DNA from: Alphaproteobacteria bacterium
GTDB taxonomy: Bacteria > Pseudomonadota > Alphaproteobacteria > Rs-D84
Assembly (NCBI GenBank): GCA_017535105.1
Contig: JAFXUI010000001.1
Span: 11,207 to 75,206, forward strand
Reading direction: 5' to 3'
DNA: 64,000 nt
This document shows, piece by piece, positions 1 through 33,431 of this stretch. How positions within the stretch are numbered: position 1 is the stretch's first letter; every line of letters begins with the position of its first letter. The translations under genes and the position numbers were made by a program. The notes beneath the pieces are model-generated. The model saw only the letters and a list, made by a program, of their open reading frames with translations, was not told the DNA's origin and ran no database searches.

Positions 1-1132
1 TATAGAGATCGTGGAAATTTGCTGTTTTTTCTTTTACATTCCAAAAATAATCTGGATTTACAGAATCTAAAATCTTGTCGTGAACAATCAAGCGCGGTGT
101 TATTGACCCCGAAAAACTGACCGTTGTGTATATCGCGGTTATACGACCACCCGTCATATCCAAACTTTGGTTCACATCTAAAATCGCGCTTTTACTGCCA
201 CTGTTTATCGACAACCCCGACAAATTCAACGTATTTGTCCACAGGTCCGCAACAGTCACACTTGAAAACTTACCAACATCTGCCAACAACAATGTTCCAG
301 CAATTTCCATCGTTTTTGCGTCTGCTGACAAATTACCAATACACGTTGCGTTTTTCGTGTCCAGCACACTGTCAATCGTTGTACGATTTGCAAACACAAC
401 CTTATCTGCGGCAATACTGATTGATTTTAATATTTCATCAAAACCCGCCGCTGACGCATCAAAATATTTTACATTTGTTATGTCATGACCACCCAAATTT
501 AATGGTCCTAACATTTTTGCATCGTCTGAATTTTCCGATGGTTCGCGCCACAGGTATAACGCATTATCACGACTGACCGATGTTGTGGTAATGATTCCAT
601 CGGGCGCATTAATACCAATATCCATTGTGTCGGTGTGCCACGCACCAAATGTTCCATACGCATGCGTTCCATCAATAAAGCCCATCTTGTCGCCACCAAC
701 AGCCATTATTTGTTGGGTGCGCAATGGACTTATTGTTGAGTCCGTCATAACAACAACACCTTGTAATGTTGCTTGCCCAATTGCGTCCGAAGATTTCAAA
801 ACACGTAATTGGTATTTATCGGCGTTTTCTTCAACAATATTTTGTGGAATACCAAAGTCAACCAAATCTGCGATTTCAACACGCGCAATGTTTTTACCCG
901 CCACGGTCAACAATTCTTCACGATTGGCAACAATATATCTTTCAAGTGCGCCTTCGACATCTTGCATTTCGCGCGCAATCGCAATATTTTCCGCACGCAC
1001 CACAGAGTCCTGTTGATACTTGAACAAGAATGGCAACACAACCGCGACAATTGCCACACACATCAGCAATTCAATCAGCATGCCACCATGCTGTGATTTA
1101 TGATGCGAAAAAATTCTGCTTCTGTTTATCAT
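1..1132 (-). CDS. Large prepilin-type N-terminal domain protein (pilin-like or pseudopilin-like); 5' portion, C-terminus lies beyond the window start
   Basis: Reverse-strand frame is open from position 1 to an ATG at 1132..1130. Hand-translated N-terminus is MINRSRIFSHHKSQHGGMLIELLMCVAIVAVVLPFLF. It has a Gly-Gly then a hydrophobic stretch with Glu at +4/+5, i.e. a class-III (prepilin peptidase) signal. Its ATG overlaps the TGA of the upstream gene (ATGA overlap). It is not in the ORF track because its stop is outside the window. Confidence 0.5.
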   Translation of the reverse strand, partial: MINRSRIFSHHKSQHGGMLIELLMCVAIVAVVLPFLFKYQQDSVVRAENIAIAREMQDVEGALERYIVANREELLTVAGKNIARVEIADLVDFGIPQNIVEENADKYQLRVLKSSDAIGQATLQGVVVMTDSTISPLRTQQIMAVGGDKMGFIDGTHAYGTFGAWHTDTMDIGINAPDGIITTTSVSRDNALYLWREPSENSDDAKMLGPLNLGGHDITNVKYFDASAAGFDEILKSISIAADKVVFANRTTIDSVLDTKNATCIGNLSADAKTMEIAGTLLLADVGKFSSVTVADLWTNTLNLSGLSINSGSKSAILDVNQSLDMTGGRITAIYTTVSFSGSITPRLIVHDKILDSVNPDYFWNVKEKTANFHDLY

Positions 1133-2349
1133 TGTCCGCTTGTGTACCCCGTTGGAATATATTCTTGCCACCCGTCTGACATAATTGCGCCAAACTCTTC
1201 GGTCTTTGGTACGGTTGGCATTTTAGTACGCGTAATATTCAATTCTGTAAAACTTGGTGGGTTGGTTGATGGAAAATACCACGACCCCAATTTTATCGGC
1301 GAAGTTGTAGACATCATAAGTTCGCCCGAAACCGTCAACCCAAAGTTTTCAAAAAACATTATTTCGTCTGTATTCAAGTATGACGTATATACCGAACCAG
1401 CACTTATTCCCGCAAAACCACTTATTGTTTTGGAACTGCTGGATTTCAGATTTAAATTTTGTGCAACGTTTAACGAATTTGTGACAGTTGCTTTATCGGC
1501 AATGATGCGACCCGATGTCGAATAACCACGATTATTTAACTTGGCCGCGTAAATATTTCTGAACCCGATAACATCTTCGGTTACACGTAAAGAGCCAATC
1601 GAAACATTGTTACCCGTCATATTCGCACCATTGGAAAAATACACCGATTGCGCTGTCAAATCTTCGGATTCAACAAAGGTCGATGTAACATCACGCACAC
1701 GCAGTGCCGATGCAAACACACCACCAATATCGTACATGTTGTATCCGCCCATATTCAAATCACGATGCATAACATTCAAATCATCATCGCCCGATGTACC
1801 ACGATGTAAAAACTTTGTGTTATCTTCGTTTGTCACATTACGCGTAATACGATATATCAAATCACCCGCTGAAAAATCTGGGGCAACAACCGCCCACGTA
1901 CGACCATAGGCAACACCGTCCATACCAACAATTGCCGCGTCATCACCAATATGATGTGCAATATTCGCCGCACGCAAATTTGTTGAACCCATATCAAATG
2001 CTAAATATACATCTGTGACCGAAGTACCATTCACAACGTATTTATCAATAAAGCCCGCATTTGCACCACTGGCCAACATTTCCAAATCTTTTTCACTCAT
2101 TCTTATTTGTACGACATCGGGCCAAGTGTCTTGATTTAAACGGATAAAATTTAATATCTCTGGTCGCAAATCAATTATGTTATGCGCAATTGCCATATCG
2201 CGAATATTGTTGTTTGTTTCGGAAATTTGTGAATACACGAACGGCATGGCAATTGCAACAATTGCCATCGACATCAGCACTTCTAACATGCTGGCGCCAC
2301 GATTTTTACTGTCAAAAATCTTCGTTTTAAACACAGCCACCCTTACCAC
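1129..2349 (-). CDS. Large prepilin-type N-terminal domain protein (406 aa), Asn/Gly/Ser/Thr-rich and adhesin-like
   Basis: N-terminus is ...NRGASMLEVLMSMAIVAIAMPFVY, with G(-1) and Glu at +5 in a hydrophobic helix. The rest is rich in N, G, S and T. It overlaps both flanking pilin-like genes. Confidence 0.5.
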   Translation of the reverse strand: MVRVAVFKTKIFDSKNRGASMLEVLMSMAIVAIAMPFVYSQISETNNNIRDMAIAHNIIDLRPEILNFIRLNQDTWPDVVQIRMSEKDLEMLASGANAGFIDKYVVNGTSVTDVYLAFDMGSTNLRAANIAHHIGDDAAIVGMDGVAYGRTWAVVAPDFSAGDLIYRITRNVTNEDNTKFLHRGTSGDDDLNVMHRDLNMGGYNMYDIGGVFASALRVRDVTSTFVESEDLTAQSVYFSNGANMTGNNVSIGSLRVTEDVIGFRNIYAAKLNNRGYSTSGRIIADKATVTNSLNVAQNLNLKSSSSKTISGFAGISAGSVYTSYLNTDEIMFFENFGLTVSGELMMSTTSPIKLGSWYFPSTNPPSFTELNITRTKMPTVPKTEEFGAIMSDGWQEYIPTGYTSGQ

Positions 2350-3685
2350 TTAACAAACATTGTTTGATATCTATTCTTTTTTCCAACCTTTGCCAATATA
2401 CAAATTGGCATATTATGTATTGCGACAAAGATTGAGAATTATAAACACCGTCCAGTGATGTGATTATCGATTTACAATCAACCGTTGTACTGTCGTTCGC
2501 AGATGGATTCTTTAATATTCTAAATGCGGAATTATCAATTGTGCCAATACGCACGTCTGGTAAAATCGATGTTCCAGCGGGCCGTATATCCAACACCGCC
2601 ACACCACTGCCACCACGCGACAATGATTCAGACGTCTGGTCACGCAGCGTTATATTTGACGCGTGAATAATATCCGTATCAATACCACTGTTACTGCTGT
2701 ATTCCAGTGTGTCGGAATTAATATACACGTCTTGCCCACGCGCAACGTTTAAAAAAGAATCAACTTCTAACCGTTCTGTTGCAAAGTTTATTTTACTGGA
2801 CACCAGGTTGCCATGAATATTCCATTTTGCCGGTCCATAAAAACCCGTACGTCCCTCCGCCATTGAAAAATCATAAACACCCGCAGAATCAAGTGTTATG
2901 TTTCCTGTATCCCCATAACGAGAAACCGTCCGAAACGATGCGTTATCCACAATCATTGTTCCACGAACCAGTGACAATGCGCCCTCACCCGTTTTAGATT
3001 GAAAGATTGTTTTATCGGCGGCCATTGTCACAATTTTATTACGAACCTTGCGATCTGTTTCCAAACCGTTTATGTTTAACACCCCTATTTCTGAACCATC
3101 AAAATTACCACGCCGTGCAACCGCACGACCAACGTCTGAAATTGAATTGTCGTCCATATCCAAATCAACCAAGAAAGCACTGGAATCTATATCGGGTTCA
3201 TTTCTGCGCACAACATCAGAATACAACGTTTCCAACGGCACACCAACCTGGATTGAACCGTCACCCATATCTTTGGCATAAAAACCAATTCGGCGCACCA
3301 ATTCGGTACGCGACATAGTATTCAAATCACCACCCGTTAATTCAACATATGCGGATATTTCAACCGGGGTTTTATTTATTACCAAAATCATCTGTTGCCC
3401 CAGTGCTGTCTTCGGAACAAACCCCAGTGGCAAACCATAGGGTTCCAACATATCGGCAAAAGATTTTCCGGCAATCACAGTACGGTCATACGGCAACGCA
3501 GAAGCATTTTCCCGAATAAAAATTCGTGCCGCAGTTGTTGCATTATCTATTTTTTGCGTTGTCGCATACATGTGCGCATTGTTGTCGCGTTCCAGCAATT
3601 TTACGGCAAAAAACGGGATAAACATGAACAGCAGCGTCACCGCCAGCAATGCTTGCAGCAGAAAGTTTCCACGACTGTTATGCAA
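2327..3685 (-). CDS. Large exported or membrane-anchored protein (452 aa) with a degenerate pilin-like N-terminus; first gene of the three-gene minus-strand cluster
   Basis: N-terminus is MHNSRGNFLLQALLAVTLLFMFIPFF, a Gly then a hydrophobic helix with Gln instead of Glu at +5. It overlaps the downstream gene by 23 nt. I recognise no known domain. Confidence 0.35.
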   Translation of the reverse strand: MHNSRGNFLLQALLAVTLLFMFIPFFAVKLLERDNNAHMYATTQKIDNATTAARIFIRENASALPYDRTVIAGKSFADMLEPYGLPLGFVPKTALGQQMILVINKTPVEISAYVELTGGDLNTMSRTELVRRIGFYAKDMGDGSIQVGVPLETLYSDVVRRNEPDIDSSAFLVDLDMDDNSISDVGRAVARRGNFDGSEIGVLNINGLETDRKVRNKIVTMAADKTIFQSKTGEGALSLVRGTMIVDNASFRTVSRYGDTGNITLDSAGVYDFSMAEGRTGFYGPAKWNIHGNLVSSKINFATERLEVDSFLNVARGQDVYINSDTLEYSSNSGIDTDIIHASNITLRDQTSESLSRGGSGVAVLDIRPAGTSILPDVRIGTIDNSAFRILKNPSANDSTTVDCKSIITSLDGVYNSQSLSQYIICQFVYWQRLEKRIDIKQCLLSGKGGCV

Positions 3686-5752: not shown

Positions 5753-6211
5753 ATGAGACAAGAACACGGACGTTCACTGATTGAAATTATCGGGGTGTTG
5801 GCCATTGGTGCGGTTATGTCGGTCGCAACAATCGCGATGTACGGCCAGATTCGCACGACCCAAATTCGTACAGTTGCAACAGCGGAACTGGAACAGATTG
5901 TCAAAGACGTGAAATTACTTACTGGTGCACGTGGCACGTATGAGGGTGTTTCGGTTGAATACTTGGTCAAGGCGGGCGCATTAAAATCAACACGTTCACC
6001 ATTGGGTGGCGAAGACTGGTCTGTCAACCCCAGTTTTGATGGTGCATCTTTCTCAATCAACTTAACCGAACTTTCTGCCGATGAATGTGCTTACTTTTCA
6101 ACCAAGCAACCAACATGGGCGAATGCTATTTTAATAAACGGTTATGAGATTGACGAAAGCCAGCACTGTTTTTCAACAAACACCAATCAGATTTCTTTCA
6201 TAGTGGAATAA
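5753..6211 (+). CDS. Type IV pilin-like protein (152 aa) with an atypical +1 residue
   Basis: MRQEHG|RSLIEIIGVLAIGAVMSVATIAMYGQ matches the type IV pilin N-terminal helix consensus (xTLIELMIVVAIIGILAAIAIPQY), but has Arg at +1 instead of Phe or Met. There is Glu at +5 and a C-terminal Cys pair (ADEC...QHCF) like a D-region disulfide. Confidence 0.55.
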   Translation: MRQEHGRSLIEIIGVLAIGAVMSVATIAMYGQIRTTQIRTVATAELEQIVKDVKLLTGARGTYEGVSVEYLVKAGALKSTRSPLGGEDWSVNPSFDGASFSINLTELSADECAYFSTKQPTWANAILINGYEIDESQHCFSTNTNQISFIVE

Positions 6212-11124: not shown

Positions 11125-11370
11125 TTATCTCTGTTTTACAAAATCACGAAACATAATATTTTTTGTATTTGCTTTCGCATCAGCAAGCATATTGTTATTT
11201 TCTTTTTTCTCTATAATATCTGGTTCTGCTTTTGGTTTACGACGGTACAACAAACAACAACCCAACGCTATGGCCCCCAATGCCAACCCAGAGGCAATCA
11301 CTAATGTTCTTATAATTTCTTTGGAGTATTTATTCATTTTGTTTTCCTTTATCTTTGTCTGTTTATCCAT
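11125..11370 (-). CDS. Small hypothetical membrane protein (81 aa)
   Basis: It is a Lys-rich peptide with one predicted transmembrane helix (LVIASGLALGAIALGCCLLY). It may be spurious. Confidence 0.3.
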   Translation of the reverse strand: MDKQTKIKENKMNKYSKEIIRTLVIASGLALGAIALGCCLLYRRKPKAEPDIIEKKENNNMLADAKANTKNIMFRDFVKQR

Positions 11371-12101
11371 TTGTCTGCTTTCATAATATATTGACGTGCA
11401 AGTTCACAATCAAATTTGTCGTTGGTTTTCAATTTCCCTTCGGCATCAATCCAAATGTCTTCACGATTCTTTGGCACGACCGATGAAATCTTTCTTAAAT
11501 TTTTCACAACATTTTTCGGTGACATTCCGCCCGAATATCCCATCGGCACGCTGTCATATACTGGCTTGTTCCATGTGCCTGGTGTCAAACCACGTCCACC
11601 AGACGCATCATAAAGCAACGAAAACTTTGCGCCCATTTCATATAATACCCATGCGGCATTTTTTGTTCGGTCATTATACTGCAAAATAAATTCATGGTCG
11701 TCATTGTGCAGGAATAATTTTTTTACCGCATCATAATTTATATCACGAACGGCGGTGTTTGACATATTTAACTGCCAGCGTTTAACCAATGGTGAAAAGC
11801 CCAAGTTTTTACGATAAAGCCCAAAGAATTCCCGTAATTCCATTGGAATTTCACCGGTACGACAAATTTCTTCGCACCATTCTTGGTTTACGTGCACCGC
11901 CAAATTTATGTCATGGGCATCACGTACACAATAACGGCACAATTCATGAAACCATTCATTACGTGGCATACCCGGGGACGCCTTGGACGGATGCATTTGC
12001 ACCGCAATTTCTGCACGTGGCGAACTTTCTGCCAATTTTACAATATCATGAAAATCATTAAATTCACGCGGGTCAGAACAAGTGATGTATCTCAGTCGCA
12101 T
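11349..12101 (-). CDS. Conserved hypothetical protein, paralog B of the MRLRYITCSDPRE family (250 aa)
   Basis: The evidence is the same as for paralog A. Its start overlaps the 3' end of rlmN by 29 nt. Confidence 0.6.
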   Translation of the reverse strand: MRLRYITCSDPREFNDFHDIVKLAESSPRAEIAVQMHPSKASPGMPRNEWFHELCRYCVRDAHDINLAVHVNQEWCEEICRTGEIPMELREFFGLYRKNLGFSPLVKRWQLNMSNTAVRDINYDAVKKLFLHNDDHEFILQYNDRTKNAAWVLYEMGAKFSLLYDASGGRGLTPGTWNKPVYDSVPMGYSGGMSPKNVVKNLRKISSVVPKNREDIWIDAEGKLKTNDKFDCELARQYIMKADKWINRQR

Positions 12102-13203
12102 TTTTTTCTTCCTTTTTATGTTTTAAACGCAACTGTCCACATGCAGAACCGATGTCGGTTCCCCTCTCTCGCCGTATGCGTGTATGAATACCGTTTTTAA
12201 TCAAAATGTCTTGAAACCGATGAACCGCGTTGCCCGATATAGATGCAAAATCACGTTCATCAACCGTATTCCATGGGATTAAGTTTACCATACAATTTTT
12301 ACCATGCAATAACTTTGATAATTCTTCGGCATATTCGGGCGTCGCATTATAAAGCACCACGTCGCCATTTTCGTCTTTTTTGCCAAGAAGTATATATTCG
12401 ATCATCAACTGGCGATTATGTAGGTTTGTAAACTCGTCCGCCGTCGCCAACACCTCCGATAATTTATATTTATTATTTATCGGCATAATTTGGCTGCGTA
12501 ATTCGTCTGTTGGTGCGTGCAGAGATATTGCCAGATTTATCGGACGGCCCCACTCTATCAATCGTTTAATTCCCGGCACAATACCACATGTCGACAGTGT
12601 TAAGCGCCGCCAGCCAATACCCATATCAGTGTTTGCGCGTTCCATAAAACCGATTACGTTTTCGGTATTCTGTAATGGTTCACCCGTCCCCATAATTACA
12701 ATATGCGAAACATCACCATTATTTGCATCGCCATTTGGGTGAATAGATTTTTCATTTGTAGAATTGCGTAATGTCCATTGTGCAATTAAAATCTGGGCGA
12801 ACATTTCGTTCACGGTTAAATTACGTTTTAATCCCAACAGTGTACTTGCGCAAAATTTACACCCCATCGCACAGCCAGCCTGGGAACTGACACAGACACT
12901 GTTGCCATAACTGGTGCGCATTAAAACGCATTCTATTTGTTCCGCGTCATTTAATTCCAATAAAAATTTGGTTGTTTGACCGTCACTTGATTCCAGTTTT
13001 TTCGTAACACGTAATGGTAACGTTTGTGCCGTTTCGTCCAAGCGTTTACGCAACGCCGCCGGCAAATTTTTCATTGATTCAAAATCTGGTGCACCACGAT
13101 TTAACCAATCGCGAATTTGTTTTGCGCGAAAACGTGGTTCGCCCAAATCTACGACAAACTTTTCCAATTCAGAATCATTAAAATCAAACAGTATTGGTTT
13201 CAT
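12073..13203 (-). CDS. rlmN: 23S rRNA m2A2503 / tRNA m2A37 methyltransferase, radical SAM
   Basis: It has the CxxxCxxC radical-SAM cluster (GCAMGCKFCAS) and the conserved RlmN N-terminus (FRAKQIRDWL). Confidence 0.92.
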   Translation of the reverse strand: MKPILFDFNDSELEKFVVDLGEPRFRAKQIRDWLNRGAPDFESMKNLPAALRKRLDETAQTLPLRVTKKLESSDGQTTKFLLELNDAEQIECVLMRTSYGNSVCVSSQAGCAMGCKFCASTLLGLKRNLTVNEMFAQILIAQWTLRNSTNEKSIHPNGDANNGDVSHIVIMGTGEPLQNTENVIGFMERANTDMGIGWRRLTLSTCGIVPGIKRLIEWGRPINLAISLHAPTDELRSQIMPINNKYKLSEVLATADEFTNLHNRQLMIEYILLGKKDENGDVVLYNATPEYAEELSKLLHGKNCMVNLIPWNTVDERDFASISGNAVHRFQDILIKNGIHTRIRRERGTDIGSACGQLRLKHKKEEKNATEIHHLF

Positions 13204-14021
13204 AATTTATATCTGTCATCGTTTATAACAACAACCGCTTTGCGCCGTAATTGTTTTAATTGTTGTTCGGCAACAAACATCGCCTGTTTATACATCGCGT
13301 TTTGTTTTATAACTTCGTCCAGTTTTCCATATTCGGCTGTTTTTTTCGTACTGCATACCAACAGCACCGAATCATCAACACGTGGCGACCAGGTAAGATT
13401 TGGCAACCCCGTCACACGTTCACGAATATCACGCGACAATTCATATTGCGCCGCCGTAAACTTTTGTGGCGCGCCACCCAAATCTTCTGCCATTTTCATT
13501 GCAGCATCACAACTTTTTGGTTTGGTCAGTTTTGCCGCGACATCGGCCGGTATATCCAACAATCGCACAATTGTCATTTCAATTGGCAAACCCTGTTCAC
13601 GTGCCAAATCATTTTTCATATCGTTAATGTCGTCTTTGCTGACATCAATTGTCGGCATAATTGTTCGCGTGATTATAACCTGCCATGCGATTTCAGCACG
13701 AATTGCCGATATTGCCATTTCACGTTCCATCGCCGTCAAGTCCGACATATTCATACGCTTTAATTCACTTGCCGCATCCGCGTCTGTTGGTTTAACGCCA
13801 AAGTTTGCCGCATAGTCCAACTTTACCGTATCATCGATAATATTTTGCAACGCAATACGGCGATTGTCTGTTGATGTTTTTCCTTGGCGCGCCATAAGTT
13901 TTGTGCGTGCAGTAATATCAGCATCTGTGATTGGTTTGCCACCAACCGTTGCAACAACACTTGTCGCAAACGCGGGCGATGCAAACATACACAACAAAGC
14001 AACAACCTTTAACAACTTCAT
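13200..14021 (-). CDS. SurA N-terminal-domain periplasmic chaperone-like protein (no obvious parvulin domain)
   Basis: It has a signal peptide and sits immediately downstream of lptD, the conserved lptD-surA position. It is only 273 aa. Confidence 0.6.
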   Translation of the reverse strand: MKLLKVVALLCMFASPAFATSVVATVGGKPITDADITARTKLMARQGKTSTDNRRIALQNIIDDTVKLDYAANFGVKPTDADAASELKRMNMSDLTAMEREMAISAIRAEIAWQVIITRTIMPTIDVSKDDINDMKNDLAREQGLPIEMTIVRLLDIPADVAAKLTKPKSCDAAMKMAEDLGGAPQKFTAAQYELSRDIRERVTGLPNLTWSPRVDDSVLLVCSTKKTAEYGKLDEVIKQNAMYKQAMFVAEQQLKQLRRKAVVVINDDRYKL

Positions 14022-14042
14022 TTTTCCCTTCCCCTATTTCCT

Positions 14043-16058
14043 TTAATAGTGTTGACCTTCGATACTCATTCCAAAACGGAACTGGACCGAAGTATTACCA
14101 TGATAATCTTCGTACACCGCATTATCACGACGATAACCAAACGAAAAATAATAACACGGGTGATTATAGTACAACGTACCACTGTGGCGCAAAAACTTAT
14201 CGTCTGTCCAATTGTATATCGCGTCCATTCGCAATGACCAACGTTCAGACAGTTTTAATCCCACACTGGCAATCGTCTCGTTTGTATCATTTTCAGCAGA
14301 ACCAATGTTGGTAAGTTGGCGCGCCCAAATATGTCCAACCGTAAACGATGCATAATCACCATTGATTGTCGCCGATGTTTCCGCATGCCGTAAATCAAAA
14401 GAATCACGATCAAAGCGATAACGACTTGATAAATCAAGCCAACTTGAATTACTGAACCCGATGCGCCCGACATAGTCCGAAGCACCATCGTGAAAGCCAC
14501 TGTTTATATCTGTGGCACGTTTTGTAAAGTCATATGATTCACCCAAAAAGACTTCGACTTGGCGACCATCTGAATTGAATGCGGCCCAGCGCACACCATA
14601 ATCGGCAAATGTTCCGTTTTCCCACAAATCGTATCCGGCAAAACGATTGTCGGAAAACAACACTGTATCCGATAAAAACGCACCCGCAGAATCATTGTTT
14701 TGCGCAAATTGTTCATCATCAACACGATGCCGCATTGTTAAACGTGCGCGCGGTTCAATTGTCTGGGACCAAGATTCCGATGGGCGAACCAATGGCAAAC
14801 CCCATTCAACATAACCACTGGGCAAGAAACGATTTTTAAGGCCGGAAAATTCGCCCCCGTCCACCATAATCGTTTTATCAAAATTATACACATCATATCG
14901 TGCATCAATTGATGCTGTTAAACGATTACCACCCCACAGTGTCCACGGACTTGTTATACGGGCATCACCGATAAAACGCTGGGCCGATGTTCCGTCACCA
15001 ACAATACCCAACACATCGGTTGAAAATGTTGCATAGGTTTCACGGAATAATGGTTGCGTCTGATAAACACCACGAATATTTGGCAAAATATTTCCACTGG
15101 GGATAGTTGTTAACCCACGCCAATTTTCCCGTCTACGCAACTCTTGGAAACTGTGCGTATCTGCGACAACGTATCCAGTCTTTGCGAACAATTCCAGTTT
15201 TGCGCCCGAATCTAAATACGGTTGATCATTATAGAATCTGTATTTCTGTAAGTATGTTTTATCCGAAGTACGCGCAATATACACCGAACCACGTGCATGC
15301 TCCCCAAGGTCAAATTTATCATTGTTAAATATGTGCCAACGGTTTTTACCTTCGCGATTATGCGTATATGAACCATTTGTTCTGAATTCTGCATGTTCAA
15401 GGTTCAACCGGTGTTCCAATTGGAACAATGGGTTTTCTTTTGTTAAATATGACACAGTAAATGTTGCATCATGCGTATCTGAAAAAGCAATATACAATGG
15501 TACATTTATTTCCGTTCCCATTTGATTTGTCGAACCAAAACTTGGCATTAACAAACCGCTTTTATGTTTAACACCGGGGTCGGGCATACTATAATACGGA
15601 AACCACAATACTGGCACATCATATACCCACAAAACCATATTGTGAAAATACAGCATACGTTCGTCCAATTCGTGAATTATTTTTGATGCCCATATCGACC
15701 AAGCATTTCCATAATCATCACACCCATCACATGCGGTGAATAACGCGCCACGCGCCACCGTATCATCGCCACTGCGCGTAATACTGTCTGATTCAACATA
15801 CACATGTTGACCCAGCCATATCTTCACATCATCACCATGTAATTCTTCGCCCTTTTGTGAAAAGTAAGAATCTTTCAATGTCATACGTTGACCACTGGCG
15901 TTTGTGATTTCAGTGTTACCCGAAGTTTTAATTGAACCGCTTTTTATATCGTATTCTATTTTGTCTGACTTGATTGTTTTTGGCGAACTGGAATCAACCC
16001 CGATTGCGAACAGCGGCATCGGAACAAGAGACAACAAAAGAGCAATAAGTTTTTTCAT
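14043..16058 (-). CDS. lptD: LPS-assembly outer membrane protein LptD
   Basis: It is 671 aa with a signal peptide and an OstA-like N-terminal domain, followed by a large beta-barrel with aromatic-rich strands. Confidence 0.88.
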   Translation of the reverse strand: MKKLIALLLSLVPMPLFAIGVDSSSPKTIKSDKIEYDIKSGSIKTSGNTEITNASGQRMTLKDSYFSQKGEELHGDDVKIWLGQHVYVESDSITRSGDDTVARGALFTACDGCDDYGNAWSIWASKIIHELDERMLYFHNMVLWVYDVPVLWFPYYSMPDPGVKHKSGLLMPSFGSTNQMGTEINVPLYIAFSDTHDATFTVSYLTKENPLFQLEHRLNLEHAEFRTNGSYTHNREGKNRWHIFNNDKFDLGEHARGSVYIARTSDKTYLQKYRFYNDQPYLDSGAKLELFAKTGYVVADTHSFQELRRRENWRGLTTIPSGNILPNIRGVYQTQPLFRETYATFSTDVLGIVGDGTSAQRFIGDARITSPWTLWGGNRLTASIDARYDVYNFDKTIMVDGGEFSGLKNRFLPSGYVEWGLPLVRPSESWSQTIEPRARLTMRHRVDDEQFAQNNDSAGAFLSDTVLFSDNRFAGYDLWENGTFADYGVRWAAFNSDGRQVEVFLGESYDFTKRATDINSGFHDGASDYVGRIGFSNSSWLDLSSRYRFDRDSFDLRHAETSATINGDYASFTVGHIWARQLTNIGSAENDTNETIASVGLKLSERWSLRMDAIYNWTDDKFLRHSGTLYYNHPCYYFSFGYRRDNAVYEDYHGNTSVQFRFGMSIEGQHY

Positions 16059-17116
16059 TATTTTTTATACAACACGCCCAAAATTACTATCAACAGAACA
16101 AATTGTAAAAATGCCAACACAACAAAGTCTGTCACACTGTCAATCATATTGCTTGCAGACATAAATGTCGCCATAACCACCGCCATCGCAGCAACAGACA
16201 TTACTGGGGCGAAACTGGCACGCCGGCGTAACAATGATGAACGCAATAATATAGCCAGGCATAATGCCGCCAAAATAAGATTCATTATTGGGTTTAACAA
16301 GCGTGTTGACAATTCGTTCAATACCGCCCGATGACGTTTTGCGGTTGGCGAATCAAACACATCACGAATAAGCGCCAACGTTGAAACACTGCGCACACGA
16401 TACGATGACGAACCACCCTTGTCCGCAACATTCAAGTCCATATCAAACATATCAAAAGATCCCGTCACTGTGGCATCACCATTACCCTGAATCGAACCAT
16501 TTGTCATAACAATCGATAACCCGCGTGGTGTCGCAACCAATTTACCCTTTTCCGCAAAGATTGTCATTTCCGACCGCGCATCACGCATATCTGCCAACAT
16601 AACCTGGGACAAATCATGCCCCGACACTTTATCCACATAGACCACCAAACCAGACGACAATTCTGTAAAAGCCGACTCTTTCAATTTCAAATGCGCCAAA
16701 CCATAACGCAGATTCCATTGCATACTGTAAAACTCGGTCTGGCTGGCCGGCACAATAAATATATTCAAAACCAAGTGCGCCACCGTCAAAATTGCCGCCA
16801 AACGCAAAGCCGGACGCGCCAATCCCGCGGGTGACAGCCCAGACGCCGCCATTACCGTTACTTCGTTATCAGAAATAAGTTTGTTATACACAAATATAAT
16901 CGAAATAAAGGTAACAAACGGTATTATTATCGATATGATAAACGGTATCATAAGGGACGTTAAACCAACAAAACTGCCCATACTTACGCCATAATTCAAC
17001 AGAAATTTCATCATGGACATAATTTGAACCATCCACGCCAATCCCGTTAAAACCGCCAACAGCATAATAAACACCATTATCAATTGGCGTGAAAAATACC
17101 TATTTATTATAGTCAT
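16058..17116 (-). CDS. LPS export ABC transporter permease, LptF/LptG (YjgP/YjgQ) family
   Basis: The N-terminus MTIINRYFSRQL... and the overall transmembrane topology are typical of LptF/LptG. It lies adjacent to lptD. Confidence 0.82.
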   Translation of the reverse strand: MTIINRYFSRQLIMVFIMLLAVLTGLAWMVQIMSMMKFLLNYGVSMGSFVGLTSLMIPFIISIIIPFVTFISIIFVYNKLISDNEVTVMAASGLSPAGLARPALRLAAILTVAHLVLNIFIVPASQTEFYSMQWNLRYGLAHLKLKESAFTELSSGLVVYVDKVSGHDLSQVMLADMRDARSEMTIFAEKGKLVATPRGLSIVMTNGSIQGNGDATVTGSFDMFDMDLNVADKGGSSSYRVRSVSTLALIRDVFDSPTAKRHRAVLNELSTRLLNPIMNLILAALCLAILLRSSLLRRRASFAPVMSVAAMAVVMATFMSASNMIDSVTDFVVLAFLQFVLLIVILGVLYKK

Positions 17117-17228
17117 GAATTAAAGTATAGCCCCCAAAACCAGTGGTGTCAATTATATCAGTTTTTTCTTGCATATTTCCGATTCGCCGTTATAATAGGC
17201 ATTGTTCTTAAAAGTTAAAGTTTTAGGG

Positions 17229-17248
17229 GCGGGGTTGAAGAACCCCGC
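17229..17248 (+). promoter_or_regulatory. Perfect 8 bp GC-rich hairpin in the nusA leader, between divergent genes
   Basis: GCGGGGTT gaag AACCCCGC, then a T-rich tract, 42 nt upstream of the nusA ATG. It is not a terminator for any gene, because both flanking genes diverge from it. Confidence 0.3.
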
Positions 17249-17289
17249 TTCTTCAATAAAAAAGACAAATTACATAAGGAGATACGCAA

Positions 17290-18828
17290 ATGTCTTTTGA
17301 ATCTATGCCTCGTCAAGATTTGTTGTTGGCCATTGATTCCTTGGCCCAGGAAAAACAAATCGACCGTGAAATTGTTATTGAATCGCTGGAAGCGGCCATT
17401 GCAAAAATCGCCAAGCATAAATATGGCGAAGAATTTGATATTGTCGCAAACATTGACCGCAAAAATGGTGCTATTCACGTTAAACGTTTGTTCACCGTTA
17501 TTGAATCACCAGAAGCCGCTGGCGAAGAATATGACCCAAGTACAATGTTGACGGTTGCCCAGGCAAAAAAATATGCCAAAAACCCATCGGTCGGCGATGT
17601 TGTCGAAGACCAATTACCAGAACCAGAATTTGGACGTATGGCATTCCAGACGGCAAAACAAATTATGACTGCACGTGTTCGCGATGCTGAAAAAGGCCGT
17701 CAATACGAAGAATTCAAGGACAACATTGGCGACATTGTATCTGGTGTTGTAAAGCGTATCGAATTTGGAAATGTATTTGTTGATATCAATGGCAAAGCCG
17801 AAGGTTATATCAAAGGCAGTGAACTTATCCCTGGTGAACGTTTGGCGGTCGGTGATCGTGTACGTGCGTTGATTATGGACGTGGCACGTTCTAATTCGGG
17901 CCCACAAATCTTTTTGACCCGTACCCACCCATTGTTCATGGAAAAGTTATTTGTCCAAGAAGTACCAGAAATCTATGAAGGTCTTATTAAAATTAAATCT
18001 GTATCACGCGCACCAGGTTCACATGCGAAAATCGCGGTTGAAACATCTGACCCATCTATTGACGCGGTTGGTATGACTGTTGGTATCAAGGGTACACGTA
18101 TTCAACCAGTTATCAATGAATGCCATGGTGAAAAGATTGACGTTATTTTGTATTCCGAAGATCCTGCTGTGTTCATCGTGAACGCAATGCAACCGGCCAA
18201 GGTCGCAAAAATTATCGTCGACGAAGACACACACACTGCGGCGGTTGTTGTGAACGAAGATCAACAATCATTGGCGATTGGTCGTCGTGGTCAAAACGTC
18301 CGCTTGGCATCACAATTGACGGGCTGGAACATTGACGTTATGAACGAAGCCGAAGAACAAGAACGTCGTGCTAAAGAATTTAAAGAAAAGACGGAATTGT
18401 TCATTGGCGCACTGGACGTTGATGAAATGATTGCACACTTGTTGATTACAGAAGGTTTCCGTACCGTCGAAGAAGTCGCATTTGTGGACGCATCTGAATT
18501 AGAATCTATCGAAGGGTTCACACCAGAATTGGCGGCCGAATTACAGAAACGTGCGAAAGATTATTTGGACAAGGTTGAACAAGACTATATCGACAATGGT
18601 CACAAAATGGGCATGTCGGACGATTTGTTAAAATTCGACTTTATCAAACGTCCAATCATTATGAAGTTGGGTGAAAACGGCATTAAATCTGTCGCTGATT
18701 TGGCAGATTTGTCATCTGACGAATTGGTTGAAATCTTGGGCGAAGATACAATGAGTGAACGCCTTGCGGGTCGCGTGATTATGAAAGCGCGTGAAGAAGC
18801 ATACGGCATAACCCAGGACGAAGAATAA
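17290..18828 (+). CDS. nusA: Transcription termination/antitermination factor NusA
   Basis: It has the NusA N-terminal domain, S1 and KH domains, and acidic C-terminal repeats, and precedes infB. Confidence 0.93.
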   Translation: MSFESMPRQDLLLAIDSLAQEKQIDREIVIESLEAAIAKIAKHKYGEEFDIVANIDRKNGAIHVKRLFTVIESPEAAGEEYDPSTMLTVAQAKKYAKNPSVGDVVEDQLPEPEFGRMAFQTAKQIMTARVRDAEKGRQYEEFKDNIGDIVSGVVKRIEFGNVFVDINGKAEGYIKGSELIPGERLAVGDRVRALIMDVARSNSGPQIFLTRTHPLFMEKLFVQEVPEIYEGLIKIKSVSRAPGSHAKIAVETSDPSIDAVGMTVGIKGTRIQPVINECHGEKIDVILYSEDPAVFIVNAMQPAKVAKIIVDEDTHTAAVVVNEDQQSLAIGRRGQNVRLASQLTGWNIDVMNEAEEQERRAKEFKEKTELFIGALDVDEMIAHLLITEGFRTVEEVAFVDASELESIEGFTPELAAELQKRAKDYLDKVEQDYIDNGHKMGMSDDLLKFDFIKRPIIMKLGENGIKSVADLADLSSDELVEILGEDTMSERLAGRVIMKAREEAYGITQDEE

Positions 18829-18870
18829 AACAAGGGTAAACAAGTAAAACATTAAAATACGGAGTATTTA

Positions 18871-21243
18871 ATGGCAACACTGACACTTGGAAAATCTGTA
18901 ACATTGGACGCGGTGCACAGCAAAAAGGGTGATTCCGTTTTTGTTGAACGCCGCCGCCGCATTGTTGCCCCCGGCAGCAAGGAATTGCGCGAAGAACCAA
19001 CTGCACCGGCACAACCACACAGCGCGGCTGATGAAAAGTTGCGCGCAGTGTTGGAGGCTGCACGTGCCCGCGAAGAAGAACGCAAAGCCAGAGAGGCCGC
19101 CGAAGAAGCTGCACGTGCCGCACGTGAGGCTGAAATCGCGCGCGAAGCCGATGAATATGAACAGGTAAAATCCCAGTTGGCTGCACGTGAAAGCGCGGCT
19201 GCCGAAGTGCCAGAAATAGAAGAAAAGCCATTTGCTTCTAAAAAACAGGCGCAAAATAATGGCGCACGTAATCATAACTCACGCGAAATTGATGAAGATC
19301 GCCCCCAGAAAAACAATCACAATAAAAAAGACTTCAAGAAAACTGGTAAAATCTCTATTCACGACATTGTTATTGGTGGTGATGATGACGATGATGAAAT
19401 CGGTATTCGTGGTGCAAATCGCCGCCGCAGCGAAGCGTCATTAAAACGTTTTCGTGAAAAAGCGCGCGCGATGTTTAATGCACCGCAAAAGGTTGCACAC
19501 GAAGTCACACTGGGCGAAACAATTACCGTCAAAGATTTGGCCGCAGCTATGGCTGAAAAGGTTGGTAATGTTATCAAGAAATTAATGGAAATGGGTATGA
19601 TGGCATCGGTCAACCAATCTATTGATGCCGATACTGCGGAACTGATTGCGGGCGAATTTGGCGCAACTGTTAAACGTGTTGTTGTTAAGCCATATGCCGA
19701 ACAGTTGGAAAGATTGCCCGATCCAAACAAATTACAATCACGTCCACCAGTTGTGACGGTTGTGGGTCACGTTGACCACGGCAAAACATCACTTTTGGAC
19801 GCGTTCCGTAATGCAAATGTTGTTGCTGGCGAAGCGGGCGGAATTACCCAGCACGTTTCTGCGTATGAGGTTAAATCACAATCTGGCCAGATGATAACAT
19901 TTTTGGATACACCGGGTCACGAAACATTTACCGCTATGCGCGCACGTGGTGCACAAATGGCAGACATTGTTATTTTGGTTGTTGCCGCAAATGATTCTAT
20001 AATGCCCCAAACGATTGAAGCATTAAATCACATTCGCGCGGCGAACGTGCCATTTATCGTTGCGATAAATAAAATCGATTTACCCGAAGCCGACCCAATG
20101 CGTGTTAAAACCGACCTTTTACAACAGGAAGTCCAGGTCGAAGATATGGGTGGTGACGTTCAATGTGTTGAAGTATCGGCGAAACAAAAAATCGGTCTTG
20201 ATAAATTGGAAGAAGCAATTTTATTACAGGCCAGTGTTATGGATTTAAAGGCCGACCCAGAAATGCCGGCGGTCGCCCACGTGGTTGAGGCGAAAATGGA
20301 ACGTGGCTTGGGTGCGGTTGCAACCGTCTTGGTACGTCAAGGTACATTAAAGATTGGCGATGTGTTCGTTGTTGGCGAAACATTTGGTCGTGTTCGTGGT
20401 TTAATCAACTCAAACGGAGAACGTGTTAAATCTGTCCGTCCGGGCCAGCCAGTAATTGTTTTGGGGTTGGATTCGGTACCACAAGCGGGTGACGAATTAC
20501 ACGTTATGGAAACAGAGGCACAAACCAGGGAAGTTGCCGCATATCGTGCACAACAGGCACGTGACAAGGCAAACGCGGTTAAACGCACATCACTGCAAGA
20601 ATTGTTCGCAAAACGCGACAGCAATAAAAAACTTATATTGCCAATCGTATTGCGTGCCGATGTACAGGGCAGTGTCGAAGCCATCACCGATATGTTGAAA
20701 GAAATTAATACTGACAAGGTTGGTGTTGATATCTTGTCATCCGGCGTTGGTCAAATTACCGAAGGTGACATCAGATTGGCGGCGGCATCAAATGCGGTTA
20801 TCATTGCGTTTAATGTTCGTGCCGATGCGGGTGTACGTGATATGGCACGTAATGCGGGTGTTGATATTCGCTATCACAGTGTCGTCTATCGTATTACCGA
20901 TGAAATCAAAGAAATCTTGTCTGGTAAATTGGCCCCAGAAAGAAAAGAAAACTTTATCGGTTACGCCGATGTTATCGCACTGTTCACGGTTGGCAAGGGT
21001 GTCCGTGTTGCCGGTTGCCGTGTAAGCGAAGGCACAATTAAAAAAGATGCGTTCGTACGATTACTGCGCGACAATGTCGTTATTTACGATGGCAAAATTG
21101 GCGAATTACGTCGTGAAAAGAACGAAGTCAAAGAAGTATCCGGTGGCGTTGAATTCGGTATGAGTTTTGAAAAATATAATGACCTGAAGGAAGGCGACCG
21201 CGTTGAATGCTATGAAGTCCAAGAAGTAAAAACACAGTTGTAA
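18871..21243 (+). CDS. infB: Translation initiation factor IF-2
   Basis: It has the G domain motifs [23 protein letters not shown] and NKID, and an Ala/Glu/Arg-rich N-terminal region. Confidence 0.97.
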
Positions 21244-21272
21244 AAAAAACGCCCGTTTGGGCGTTTTTTTAA
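21244..21272. terminator. Bidirectional rho-independent terminator (A-tract, GC hairpin, T-tract)
   Basis: aaaaaaaacgcccgtttgggcgttttttt lies between convergent infB and the virD4-like gene. Confidence 0.7.
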
Positions 21273-23524
21273 TCTATAAATTCTTTCAATTCACCGGTGG
21301 CGGGGTTATATACACGTGGTTTTCCCTTGTACCCCATAATCGCGTGATGTGATGGAATTAAAAACTCTGGCAATGGTGACGATTCCCCCATTTGAACCTT
21401 TGCGTTTAATGCTTTCTGTACTGGTGTTTTATCCAAGAAATATCTTTCTTGGGACGCTTCAATCGGTCGATTGTAATACCCTTGGTATATAATTATTTGT
21501 TTACTATCTTCCAGTTTCATAATATCCATTGGCGAATACAATAATTCTGGTGATTTTTCTTCTTTATCTTTACCGTCTGCACCCTTAACCGTTTTAAGTT
21601 TTATTTTTTCGCCCATCATATCCGAAAAACGTTTTGCGGTATCTGGGTCGTTTTGACGCATAACAATTTTTGCCGCCGTTGTTGATATAATGGTATCGGC
21701 CGCATCTGCGCCATACTTTTCGCGAATCTGGTGGATATCTTGACCGATGATAAGGTATGAAATCTTTTGACCACGTCCAAGGTCCGGTCCCTGAATCACG
21801 GCTTGCAATTTCATCATCTTTGGCATTTCGTCCAAAACAAACAATACTGGGTATGGTCCCATTTTTTTACCGTCGTGTTCAGAATCTGGCGCATTTGCCA
21901 ACAAGAAATTCGACATCAATTCAATAAAGATACCAGTAATTGGGTTTAACGCCTCAGCATCAACCATGTTGATAGACAGGTACACCGAAACAGGTTTAAT
22001 TTTGCCATCGCGTGGGTCAACCATTCCACGCAGGTCGCTGAAATGAAAATCAGAATGACTTGTACGATTACGCACCGCGGCATTACGGAAAATCGACAAG
22101 CCCGCCATAATGGTTGATAAAATTGAACCACGTTCTTTATCTGGTGTATTCGCAAGTTGCGTCAGTTCCAAAATCGCACGATGCGAATATGCATATCGGC
22201 GTGCTTCATCAACCGCACCCATAAATACATCTTTTAATGGGTCCGCCATCATAACCATTTGGTCACCGGCACGGCGGCGTTCTTCGATATCTTGGGCAAC
22301 CGCCAATTCAGCCGCATTTAACCAGTCCAAAATCATTGACAATGATGCTTCTTTACCCACCCAAGCGTCTGGTATGTGTTCCCATGTACCAACATGAACA
22401 TAGTTTGATTCATTTAATTCGCCACGTTGTAACATTGCCACCGCCGCATATGCATTTGGATCTTCGGTCATAGACAGGTAATAATCGGTCAAAACAGCTG
22501 CATCATCTGAATTAAACTCACCTGATTTAAAACGTGCATAGAAATAATCATCGGCCTTGGCACGTTCAATCTTTGACACAATAAAACTGATAAAACCAGA
22601 CAGCCCCGCACGACCAGTAATTCCCCAGTGTGGATCCTTTGGCGTTTCTTGGACTAAAACATTACAAATCGTGTCTATATACAAATCGCGCTGTTCTGGA
22701 TTAAATGGTACGTGTTCTGGGGACAACGGATTCCAAGATGGATAGTAAATTCCGCGTTCAGGATCGTCTTGACCCGCCCAGTTCATAATAAACACCGGAC
22801 CAACAGTTGAACGATATGCTGATGTTTTTTGTTTCAATTCTGGTTTCGGGTCATTGATAATCATTGAAACATTGTCACATTCAACAATAGTCGGGACAAC
22901 AACACCCGCTGTTTTACCAGTTCCCGGGGGCGCAACGCATAACGCAGACAAAGATTCGTCAAACATCAACGGCATCATTTTGCCCTTGTTCTTGAAATAC
23001 CCCAAAACCATCATAAAGCCATTGAATAAGCCTTCTTTGTTTTTATGGTCTTGCGCCATTTCTCTGATATCTGCGGCGGTTGCCTTGCGCGAAGATTTTT
23101 CGTCCAACTTATCTTTTTCATTTGGGTTAAATTCGGAAACAAGCGTCTTGTCCGCCATAATGTAATACGCGATTATAGGAAGCAATGGCGCCATACACGC
23201 CATATCGGTGTACATAACACAGCGCACAACCCACGATGGAATTTCCGCAATTACTGACATACCAAGCGTTGATAACGCATTATGTAAATAAACACTTGTC
23301 CACACGGAACTTGCCGGTGACCAACCATACCGCCATACGTGTTCCAGTATGAACGACAGGCCAAACGCAAGCGCACAAACAACCCATACAGCCAAGACCC
23401 AGCGCAACTCCCAAAAAACACGCGCCATTGGGATACGTTGGTGTTCCTTGTAAGACGCCGAATTAAAAATATTCAGACCCTTACCTTTGCCACCTGCGGA
23501 TAAAATCTTGAACTGCCCTGCCAT
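21269..23524 (-). CDS. virD4: Type IV secretion/conjugation coupling protein (VirD4/TraG/TraD family ATPase)
   Basis: It is 751 aa with an N-terminal membrane region, a Walker A motif (VAPPGTGKTAG) and a Walker B-like motif (VLFVLDEMPKM), and has the overall length and architecture of a type IV coupling protein. Confidence 0.72.
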   Translation of the reverse strand: MAGQFKILSAGGKGKGLNIFNSASYKEHQRIPMARVFWELRWVLAVWVVCALAFGLSFILEHVWRYGWSPASSVWTSVYLHNALSTLGMSVIAEIPSWVVRCVMYTDMACMAPLLPIIAYYIMADKTLVSEFNPNEKDKLDEKSSRKATAADIREMAQDHKNKEGLFNGFMMVLGYFKNKGKMMPLMFDESLSALCVAPPGTGKTAGVVVPTIVECDNVSMIINDPKPELKQKTSAYRSTVGPVFIMNWAGQDDPERGIYYPSWNPLSPEHVPFNPEQRDLYIDTICNVLVQETPKDPHWGITGRAGLSGFISFIVSKIERAKADDYFYARFKSGEFNSDDAAVLTDYYLSMTEDPNAYAAVAMLQRGELNESNYVHVGTWEHIPDAWVGKEASLSMILDWLNAAELAVAQDIEERRRAGDQMVMMADPLKDVFMGAVDEARRYAYSHRAILELTQLANTPDKERGSILSTIMAGLSIFRNAAVRNRTSHSDFHFSDLRGMVDPRDGKIKPVSVYLSINMVDAEALNPITGIFIELMSNFLLANAPDSEHDGKKMGPYPVLFVLDEMPKMMKLQAVIQGPDLGRGQKISYLIIGQDIHQIREKYGADAADTIISTTAAKIVMRQNDPDTAKRFSDMMGEKIKLKTVKGADGKDKEEKSPELLYSPMDIMKLEDSKQIIIYQGYYNRPIEASQERYFLDKTPVQKALNAKVQMGESSPLPEFLIPSHHAIMGYKGKPRVYNPATGELKEFID

Positions 23525-23581
23525 TGTGTTATGATTATATCAGAAAAAAAGCATTTAATAAATCACAATCGCACAGAAAAG

Positions 23582-33251: not shown

Positions 33252-33348
33252 AAAACTCTCTCTTTATCCCCTGTTATGAGAGTCAATATAGCAATTTTTA
33301 TGTTGAATTACAAATATTTTTTGTCTAGGATTCAAGGGCAAAATAAAT

Positions 33349-33422
33349 GGCCAGATGGCAGAGTGGTTATGCAGAGGACTGCAAATCCTTGTATGCCGGT
33401 TCGATTCCGACTCTGGCCTCCA
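33349..33422 (+). tRNA. tRNA-Cys (anticodon GCA)
   Basis: The cloverleaf was read by hand. The anticodon loop is CTGCAAA, it closely resembles bacterial tRNA-Cys, and the CCA is encoded. Confidence 0.88.
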
Positions 33423-33431
33423 AATTTTATT

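Follow-up and report, generated by a model that had tools for sequence, protein, structure and literature searches.

A VirD4/TraG-type coupling protein conserved across Candidatus Enterousia and its likely place in a dispersed chromosomal type IV secretion system

The window analysed here is the whole stretch of 64,000 nucleotides taken from contig JAFXUI010000001.1 (assembly GCA_017535105.1), and its minus strand carries, at 21269..23524, the gene of a type IV coupling protein (T4CP) of the VirD4/TraG family. This gene is inherited vertically and belongs to the core genes of Candidatus Enterousia, where it is under purifying selection; its product probably acts as the substrate-receptor ATPase of a domesticated type IV secretion system (T4SS), whose parts would be dispersed over the chromosome and would work with a type IVb pilus in contact-dependent transfer. 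The window belongs to Enterousia, in the GTDB order Rs-D84, and not to Rickettsiales; NCBI lists the taxon under Alphaproteobacteria incertae sedis. The annotation of the protein as a T4CP is itself routine, as NCBI already names it so; what is new is its status as a genus-wide core gene, the VirB3-VirB4 and type IVb pilus partners that had gone unannotated, and the scattered derivative of a VirB plus thin-pilus array that they form, all of which are absent from the published descriptions of the lineage.

Identity and conservation of the coupling protein

The gene, and the domains and motifs of its product, map as follows (aa, amino acids):

21269..23524, minus strand: VirD4/TraG-family T4CP gene, identified by its intact open reading frame (ORF), Pfam and PDB profile matches, and AlphaFold2 fold
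23156..23419, minus strand: N-terminal membrane domain, aa 36-123, with the first transmembrane segment at 36-64 and a second hydrophobic helical hairpin
22910..22936, minus strand: Walker A motif or P-loop, VAPPGTGKT, aa 197-205, GTGKT from 201
22064..22699, minus strand: all-alpha domain within the nucleotide-binding domain (NBD), aa ~276-487, larger than in TrwB, placed from the helices of the model and the TrwB_AAD_bind match
21815..21847, minus strand: Walker B region, VLFVLDEMPKM, aa 560-570, DE at 565-566

Regarding its integrity, the gene is one reading frame of 751 aa without interruption, and more than 120 homologues align across 99-100% of the protein, meaning that it is full-length. 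An earlier note on this DNA, made from the letters alone, had described a protein of this size with VAPPGTGKT, VLFVLDEMPKM, and an N-terminal membrane region, and all of these were located in the translation; the frame is free of the frameshifts that the same note had named as an observation that would speak against it.

As for the family, Pfam assigns the protein 174.7 bits for PF02534 T4SS-DNA_transf (cutoff 20.1), 71.7 bits for PF12696 TraG-D_C, and 58.9 bits for PF10412 TrwB_AAD_bind. Among the curated NCBIfam subfamilies tried (VirD4 PRK13897/PRK13850, IncP TraG, Ti TraG, F TraD, SXT TraD, and CD1115), every T4CP model matches, all far below cutoff; the best score is 131 bits vs a cutoff of 250 (CD1115), with 96 vs 728 bits for VirD4 and 95 vs 674 bits for IncP TraG. 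Because its scores lie so far under the curated cutoffs, the protein is, by sequence, a divergent family member that falls in none of these subfamilies. Its ATPase motifs are well kept: across 35 diverse homologues K204 is invariant, and G201, G203, T205, and D565 are conserved in at least 90%. With the single sequence, phmmer found no match in the PDB, and a profile was required; the one built from the 35 homologues retrieved Cagbeta (E = 8e-18), TrwB (2e-5), and DotL (2e-5), and in the profile alignment the Walker B of the window protein falls on that of Cagbeta, LMLMDEF.

The AlphaFold2 model of the protein (pLDDT 87.2, pTM 0.76) has in Foldseek Cagbeta from H. pylori as its best match (E = 3e-18), then TrwB (~1e-12), with target-normalised TM scores of ~0.66-0.75 for the two, while HerA, DndH, DotL, and VirB4 are much weaker matches. 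Judged from profile and model, the ORF encodes a genuine VirD4/TraG-type coupling ATPase, as the earlier note had proposed, its top sequence and fold matches being Cagbeta, TrwB, and DotL. There is hardly any chance that it is instead an FtsK/SpoIIIE, HerA, or defence-system ATPase. The P-loop superfamily is common to all of these, the distant fold matches do include HerA, DndH, and VirB4, and PADLOC reports a weak match to "mad8" (31.9 bits); against this, all the top matches by sequence and by fold are T4CPs, the protein has no FtsK Pfam match, FtsK is absent among the top 50 Foldseek matches, and a true FtsK (FtsK_SpoIIIE plus gamma domain) is encoded elsewhere in the lineage (locus L010, 1291-3543). 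The FtsK/SpoIIIE family, which the earlier note had set up as the match that would overturn its assignment, is therefore the best match neither by sequence nor by fold, and the PADLOC result is a weak, generic P-loop match, on which the defence-system reading was dropped.

In the model, a helical membrane domain (23-123, with helices at 23-66, 70-85, 89-104, and 114-123) is followed by a RecA-like NBD that contains the enlarged all-alpha domain at ~276-487; hydropathy marks a strong hydrophobic segment at aa 36-64, and the membrane domain is preceded by a cytoplasmic tail of 35 aa that is genus-conserved (kept in L009 and L041). The earlier note had asked about a C-terminal effector-recognition extension, and the model has no long tail of this kind, since only ~50 ordered residues extend beyond the NBD. 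Compared with Cagbeta (8DOL), TrwB (1E9R/1E9S), and DotL (6SZ9), the window protein has the same NBD plus all-alpha fold and an N-terminal membrane anchor, at an identity of only 13-16%; it differs from the structurally characterised T4CPs in its bigger all-alpha domain (~210 aa) and in its own genus-specific conserved N-terminal tail, and it has no counterpart of the long C-terminal adaptor-binding tail of DotL.

Regarding its distribution, the T4CP has 1,802 database relatives, of which the best 120 are all full-length and 71-98% identical, and in a collection of one genome per species it is encoded by at least 176 genomes, at 70-98% identity. The genomes that carry it are named Candidatus Enterousia or uncultured Alphaproteobacteria/"Rickettsiales" and derive from the guts of humans, chickens, mice, horses, and ruminants; the closed chromosomes among them measure 958,618 and 716,531 bp. 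Enterousia genomes have 0.7-1.0 Mb and are streamlined, with a high coding density; in Rs-D84 they are smaller than 1 Mb and lack respiration, pathways that make amino acids, nucleotides, and lipids, and standard transporters (PMC12306168). The predicted lifestyle is that of an obligate symbiont or parasite, which maybe receives metabolites "via intercellular connections", and the genome descriptions mention no secretion system or T4SS (PMC12306168).

The surroundings of the gene were compared over 80 loci, and in 79 of them it stands head-to-head with an rsmE-rlu-TPR block. The other flank varies, and infB adjoins the T4CP in the closest relatives only; for this reason the earlier description of a gene inserted between infB and rsmE is misleading, only the rsmE side being fixed. 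In distant Enterousia two lipoprotein genes (one of ~400 aa, the other LpoB-like) lie downstream of the T4CP, and this identity ruled them out as parts of a T4SS. In the window the immediate neighbours and the region between T4CP and rsmE are:

18871-21243, plus strand: infB
23534..23542, minus strand: extended -10 element TGATATAAT, seen in the alignment of the window and 16 loci
listed from 23531, start probably 23582, strand opposite to that of the T4CP gene: rsmE (Methyltrans_RNA), 217 aa as annotated in relatives

Given the rsmE start at 23582, the divergent intergenic region has 57 bp. The element TGATATAAT is conserved in the genus, and its position 9 nt 5' of the ATG of the T4CP, without a Shine-Dalgarno sequence, points to a promoter of the gene's own and to an mRNA that would be leaderless or nearly so. 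A generic promoter/terminator scan gave counts equal to chance, and the conserved -10 is visible in the alignment alone.

As for the selection acting on the gene, the median identity to the window T4CP is 72.6%, next to 76% for RpoH and 72% for LptF/G in the same genomes, in which RsmE (60%), the pseudouridine synthase (62%), LptD (64%), and a BamB-like protein (55%) are less conserved. The ratio of nonsynonymous to synonymous substitution rates (dN/dS) of the T4CP, taken against three relatives, is 0.068-0.098, compared with 0.048-0.068 for infB, 0.044-0.061 for rpoH, and 0.12-0.17 for rsmE and rlu (0.12-0.16 for rsmE), all of these ratios being approximate because dS exceeds 1 in these comparisons. 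Its occurrence throughout the species collection, the fixed synteny with rsmE, and a dN/dS like that of infB and rpoH are the reasons for counting it as a core gene and not as the remnant of an integrated conjugative element (ICE), the other origin that the earlier note had offered.

VirB3-VirB4 and type IVb pilus genes of the lineage

The earlier note had called the T4CP an orphan, and within the window it is one: the Pfam scan, which covered essentially all ORFs above ~120 aa, finds no VirB/Tra, relaxase, or integrase domain in the 64 kb, just as the note had reported for VirB/Tra and relaxase genes nearby. Beyond the window the description fails, as VirB3-VirB4 genes are found ~30 kb away from the T4CP in a relative. 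The variable flanks of the 80 T4CP loci were mined for ORFs of at least 200 aa, and 79 VirB4 flanks for ORFs of at least 150 aa. In the T4CP flank of locus L048, an operon 5.6 kb from the T4CP encodes a VirB3-like protein of 98 aa and a protein of 805 aa with a CagE/TrbE/VirB4 domain, intact Walker motifs, and a match of 379 bits to TIGR00929 VirB4_CagE. This VirB4 has 1,462 database relatives, of which the best 120 are 77-96% identical and mostly annotated "hypothetical"; several of the relatives appear to share contigs with the T4CP.

The arrangement is clearest in GCA_017475605.1, whose T4CP is 84% identical to that of the window. Its contig JAFVFD010000005.1 carries VirB3-VirB4 at ~318.7-321.4 kb (VirB4 at ~318.7-321.1) and the T4CP at ~350.7-353.0 kb, so that the two lie ~30 kb apart, each amid housekeeping genes; the scattered T4SS that the earlier note had envisaged gains support from this. 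The genes between them include accC-accB-mreB-metG-queH-fabD-fabG-mnmG, which are also found at 50.8-61.9 kb of the window, and because this order is common to both genomes, the window genome is predicted, also from the synteny of L089 and L091, to have its VirB3-VirB4 and HExxH genes ~17-20 kb to the right of the window, after mreC-mrdA-rodA-topA-dnaG-ychF as in GCA_017475605.1.

At 71 of 81 loci the gene after VirB4 encodes a conserved secreted protein of 205-239 aa (for example L089 12414-13040 and L048 4408-5025). It carries a signal peptide, an HExxH motif, and four cysteines, the motif and the cysteines being invariant, and it has no relative in Pfam, NCBIfam, or the PDB. Possibly it is secreted as a component that resembles zinc metallopeptidases or as an effector of the system; its identification as VirB5 was rejected, the hhalign probability vs the VirB5-like family being 0.03. 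At seven loci (among them L048 5032-5691 and L102 13073-13888) the VirB3-VirB4 operon has, after the HExxH gene, one more protein of 219-271 aa with N- and C-terminal transmembrane segments and no family match, perhaps a membrane component of the T4SS that is either particular to the lineage or strongly diverged.

A few kb beyond VirB4 and the HExxH gene, the relatives have an operon for a lipoprotein, PilO, a PilP-like protein, an ATPase (T2SSE), and a platform protein (T2SSF), and its order is that of the thin-pilus operons of R64 and PAPI-1. In conjugation through a T4SS, a type IVb pilus mediates the contact between donor and recipient (PMC5297154, PMC9045228). The parallel with IncI1 R64, IncI2 TP114, and PAPI-1/SPI-7 extends to the gene order, PilL-like lipoprotein-PilO-PilP-PilQ (ATPase)-PilR (platform), and to its linkage with a T4SS; the Enterousia candidates for PilS-like major and PilV-like large minor pilins have their parallel in the R64, TP114, and PAPI-1 systems. 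The T4SSs themselves differ, those of R64, TP114, and PAPI-1/SPI-7 being I-type or GI-type and mobile, whereas the Enterousia one is of VirB type and fixed in the chromosome. The sampled Enterousia DNA, 2.8 Mb of redundant sequence made up of ±10 kb around the T4CP and VirB4 loci plus the window, shows neither a secretin (PilN) nor a prepilin peptidase nor a shufflon.

The pilin candidates of the window are:

5753..6211, plus strand: type IV(b)-like prepilin of 152 aa, directly after dnaX, from a prepilin motif scan
1129..3685, minus strand: two large overlapping ORFs of 406 aa (1129-2349) and 452 aa (2327-3685), from their translations

The 152-aa prepilin begins MRQEHG/RSLIEIIGVLAIGAV..., with the prepilin motif G/RSLIE and a hydrophobic helix, and its match to PilS is weak (PF08805, E = 0.0014, under the cutoff). 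It is a probable major pilin of the type IVb pilus of the lineage and possibly an accessory of the same cell-contact apparatus as the T4CP. The 406-aa ORF has a clear prepilin-type N-terminus, G/ASMLE (G/ASMLEVLMSMAIVAIA...), a motif shared by its homologue at L041; the 452-aa ORF is only possibly prepilin-like, and neither ORF has a Pfam or NCBIfam match. Both are tentatively put forward, from their sequences, as candidates for a PilV-like minor pilin or adhesin. Altogether, the prepilin-like genes of the window probably belong to the same cell-contact apparatus as the T4CP.

Ancestry of the system and weighing of the explanations

The best annotated relatives of the T4CP (31-33% identity, 76-88% coverage) belong to plasmid VirB/VirD4 operons, and those of VirB4 (31-34%) lie in the same complete operons, which are carried by megaplasmids of Erythrobacter aureus (NZ_CP031358.1), Microvirga sp. 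VF16 (pMVF16-3), and Sphingosinicella sp. (p1). Their order is MobA/MobL, VirB2, B3, B4, B5-like, B6-like, B7-like, B8, B9, B10, B11, VirD4, and hidden Markov models (HMMs) made from them score 440-470 bits on the Enterousia VirD4 and ~620 bits on VirB4. These alphaproteobacterial megaplasmids thus have the same T4SS type as the Enterousia pieces; the difference is that they hold MobA/MobL, VirB2-B11, and VirD4 in one operon of 20 kb, while in Enterousia the genes are chromosomal, dispersed, and vertically inherited. Two arrays of relatives complete the comparison:

6937-20295 of ENA ERZ19026115 scaffold_8 (L175): chromosomal VirB-type T4SS of a distant relative
1939-21359 of Logan SRR22388012_2850 (L178, GC 0.65): co-directional array of VirB2-B11 and type IVb pilus genes

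More remote T4CP relatives on chromosomes (34-50% identity) lie in housekeeping contexts as well. The L175 cluster has VirB10-VirB11-VirD4 and, divergently, 224aa-secretin-VirB9-VirB8-73aa-VirB4-VirB3; its secretin is a lipoprotein (PF00263, MshL/PilN-like) placed between VirB9 and the proline-rich ORF of 224 aa, and its T4CP, of 909 aa, is extended at the C-terminus by a region that weakly matches RNase_T/DnaQ-like exonucleases (22 bits, under the cutoff). In L177 a prepilin peptidase directly follows the T4CP, and in L081 and L082 pilin genes stand beside it. The order of L178 is VirB2?-B3-B4-263aa-B6-like-59aa-B8-B9-B10-B11-359aa-TcpQ-secretin-PilO-346aa-pilus ATPase, the array being interrupted by an IS605 OrfB/TnpB gene. 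Enterousia has homologues of its VirB3 (45 bits), VirB4 (466 bits), and PilO (66 bits), and the genes between VirB4 and PilO have no counterpart in the sampled lineage DNA. By this comparison the Enterousia layout looks like the L178 array with its middle replaced by rml/lpx genes and VirD4 moved away, and the array offers a plausible picture of how the Enterousia genes were arranged ancestrally.

Regarding other features of the out-groups, three lineages whose T4CPs are 34-38% identical, in contexts such as hfq-hflX-obg-rpmF-plsX, have a pentapeptide-repeat protein directly upstream of the T4CP and in the same orientation (L084 8772-10001, L085 8958-9995, L088 4227-5429). These proteins are homologous, of 345-409 aa, with a basic C-terminal tail, and might serve as adaptor, substrate, or DNA mimic; as they have no counterpart in Enterousia, they were discarded as partners of its T4CP. 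Two further distant relatives of the T4CP (P0132 and P0154) contain inteins (Hint, with or without LAGLIDADG) in the N-terminal part of the ATPase.

A known system in a similar situation is the Rvh T4SS of Rickettsiales, a chromosomal and vertically inherited P-type system split into islands, in which RvhD4 is kept without conjugation genes; VirB islands far apart are the rule in that order. Like Rickettsiales, Enterousia would be a host-dependent alphaproteobacterium of reduced genome with a dispersed chromosomal T4SS. The differences are that virD4 of Rvh adjoins virB8-11, whereas the Enterousia T4CP stands alone beside rsmE (80 loci); that Rvh belongs to Rickettsiales and the present system to Rs-D84; that the window protein reaches only 96 bits where the curated VirD4 cutoff is 728; and that in Enterousia the duplicated VirB4/6/8/9 paralogues of Rvh were not observed and a type IVb pilus is added.

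The reading that we favour starts from a VirB/VirD4-type conjugative ancestor, which in some relatives is linked with the operon of a type IVb "thin" pilus. The T4SS pieces of Enterousia would have become dispersed among housekeeping genes, VirD4 settling by rsmE with its own conserved promoter, and VirB3-VirB4 with the secreted HExxH protein lying tens of kb from it, near the pilus operon and the pilin genes. The T4CP would be a functional, inner-membrane-anchored, hexameric VirD4-type coupling ATPase. The pilus would attach the bacterium to a partner cell; VirD4 would recognise cytoplasmic substrates, either proteins or DNA, and pass them to a translocon energised by VirB4, and this contact-dependent transfer would serve the predicted obligate partner-dependent lifestyle. 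We infer that the T4SS parts work together and that the other channel components exist, as well as the type of the cargo and the direction of its transfer; the scattered system is possibly pared down.

Several observations weigh against this reading. The sampled DNA was searched with HMMs and phmmer, using seeds from the three plasmid operons (L172-174), L175, and L178, and VirB3, VirB4, and VirD4 were recovered strongly; VirB2/5/6/7/8/9/10, secretin, TcpQ, and relaxase were not found there, and the "VirB11" matches are the pilus ATPase of 545 aa only. The VirB9, VirB10, and VirB8 cores of L175, searched against a collection of 5.8 billion proteins with a word prefilter that may miss homologues at ~35% identity or less, retrieved 88 proteins, including some from Telmatospirillum, Holosporales, and Neorickettsia, and none recognisably from Enterousia. 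By Pfam, the unknown membrane or secreted families in the T4CP and VirB4 flanks are SPOR, MreC, and unknown surface proteins, with no VirB6/8/9/10. As only VirB3, VirB4, and VirD4 were recovered, a complete canonical VirB/VirD4 channel is unproven; VirB6/8/9/10 evolve faster than the ATPases, so that the absence of the VirB6-11 envelope core is suggestive, not conclusive. Furthermore, no substrate or effector is known, VirB4 itself is not within the window, the copy of the window genome being predicted from synteny beyond the right end, and the functional coupling of the T4CP to the pilus is suggested by the gene neighbourhood and by analogy with R64, TP114, and PAPI-1.

These gaps give room to another, rather unlikely explanation: an exapted module that has lost the VirB6-VirB11 core, secretin, and relaxase and has kept VirB3-VirB4 and VirD4, and that would work with the type IVb pilus or with lineage-specific envelope proteins in the import or export of macromolecules or in pilus-linked transfer. 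It would account for the failure to find VirB6-11 in the sampled neighbourhoods or in the database search, which contrasts with more than 1,400 lineage matches for VirB4 and more than 1,800 for VirD4; for the Enterousia order VirB3-VirB4-X...lipoprotein-PilO-PilP-ATPase-platform, which equals that of L178 with the middle from VirB5 to secretin swapped for rml/lpx; and for the recurrence of type IV pilus-type genes by the T4CP clade in out-groups (L081, L082, L177, L175). However, the evidence of absence is weak, being drawn from ±10 kb around two genes plus the window, for VirB6/8/9/10 proteins that evolve fast, and from a search whose prefilter limits it at 35% identity or less; islands are widely scattered as a rule in Rickettsiales, and we know of no T4SS that functions without VirB6/8/10-type parts. 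In the form given to this explanation by L178, which is likewise rather unlikely, an ancestor with an array like that of L178 (and, with a secretin within the VirB cluster, like that of L175) would have lost VirB5-B11, TcpQ, secretin, and relaxase but kept VirB3-VirB4, VirD4, and the genes for pilus assembly under strong purifying selection, and its T4SS ATPases would now belong to a hybrid, pilus-linked architecture. They could feed substrates through the machine of the type IVb pilus or through lineage-specific envelope proteins, or be powered alongside them, and this would allow the exchange of macromolecules with the partner cell on which a bacterium with a genome below 1 Mb depends.

Two explanations that keep closer to conjugation are far less probable. 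A chromosomal system that still conjugates, coupling relaxase-bound DNA, exchanging DNA between Enterousia cells, or releasing or taking up DNA for nutrition, is very unlikely: the ancestral type is indeed conjugative (MobA/MobL), type IVb pili favour mating within the gut (PMC9045228), nucleotide biosynthesis is missing from the lineage, and one out-group T4CP, that of L175, has the exonuclease-like extension with the sub-threshold RNase_T match, but neither relaxase nor oriT was detected in the sampled DNA, the T4CP of the window lacks this extension, and a DNA substrate is without direct evidence. Slightly less credit still goes to a decaying ICE or plasmid remnant in which the T4CP would persist as a selfish gene or without a function, a reading to which its local isolation from transfer genes in the window and the MobA/MobL relaxase in the conjugative operons of its nearest clustered relatives could point. 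Such a remnant is hard to reconcile with an intact ORF fixed beside rsmE in so many species and with a dN/dS of ~0.07-0.10, low like that of infB; streamlined genomes of high coding density do not retain dead genes. No integrase, relaxase, or compositional anomaly marks the T4CP, whose GC content (0.41-0.44) is unremarkable against a window average of ~0.43, and no dedicated search for repeats was made at the borders of the gene. A dispersed, domesticated T4SS used with the type IVb pilus is therefore retained as the likely explanation.

Other genes of the window and significance for Enterousia

The remaining Pfam content of the window is housekeeping: dnaX, lpxD, fabZ, rlmN, lptD, lptF/G, nusA, infB, rsmE, a pseudouridine synthase, rpoH, a BamB-like gene, a MacAB-TolC-type pump, recF, sspB, gpsA, rsmG, parAB, infC, der, pnp, mutS, truB, accBC, mreB, metG, queH, fabDG, and mnmG, together with four tRNAs. 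The recF-like ORF (33276-34517, plus strand) overlaps at its 5' end tRNA-Cys (33349-33422), and because its SMC_N match begins at residue 53, its true start is expected downstream of the tRNA. Two paralogous ORFs of 248 and 250 aa (9551-10297 and 11349-12101, both on the minus strand) flank an OmpA-family gene; both begin MRLRYITCSDPRE and have no Pfam match. Between mnmG and tRNA-Thr, two adjacent ORFs of 162 and 147 aa (61923-62411 and 62458-62901, both on the plus strand) resemble each other by eye as paralogues, with no family match.

In conclusion, Enterousia is a prevalent, uncultured lineage of gut and rumen, and VirD4, VirB3-VirB4, and the type IVb pilus, as core genes of the genus constrained much like housekeeping genes, are the first concrete, testable candidate machinery for its dependence on a partner. 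Besides Rickettsiales, it would be a second, independent case among Alphaproteobacteria of a T4SS derived from conjugation whose genes were domesticated and dispersed as the genome shrank. If it is true that the envelope core is missing, the minimal-parts list for a working T4SS would be challenged, and a hybrid architecture of T4SS ATPases and pilus, if real, would be one that has not been described before.

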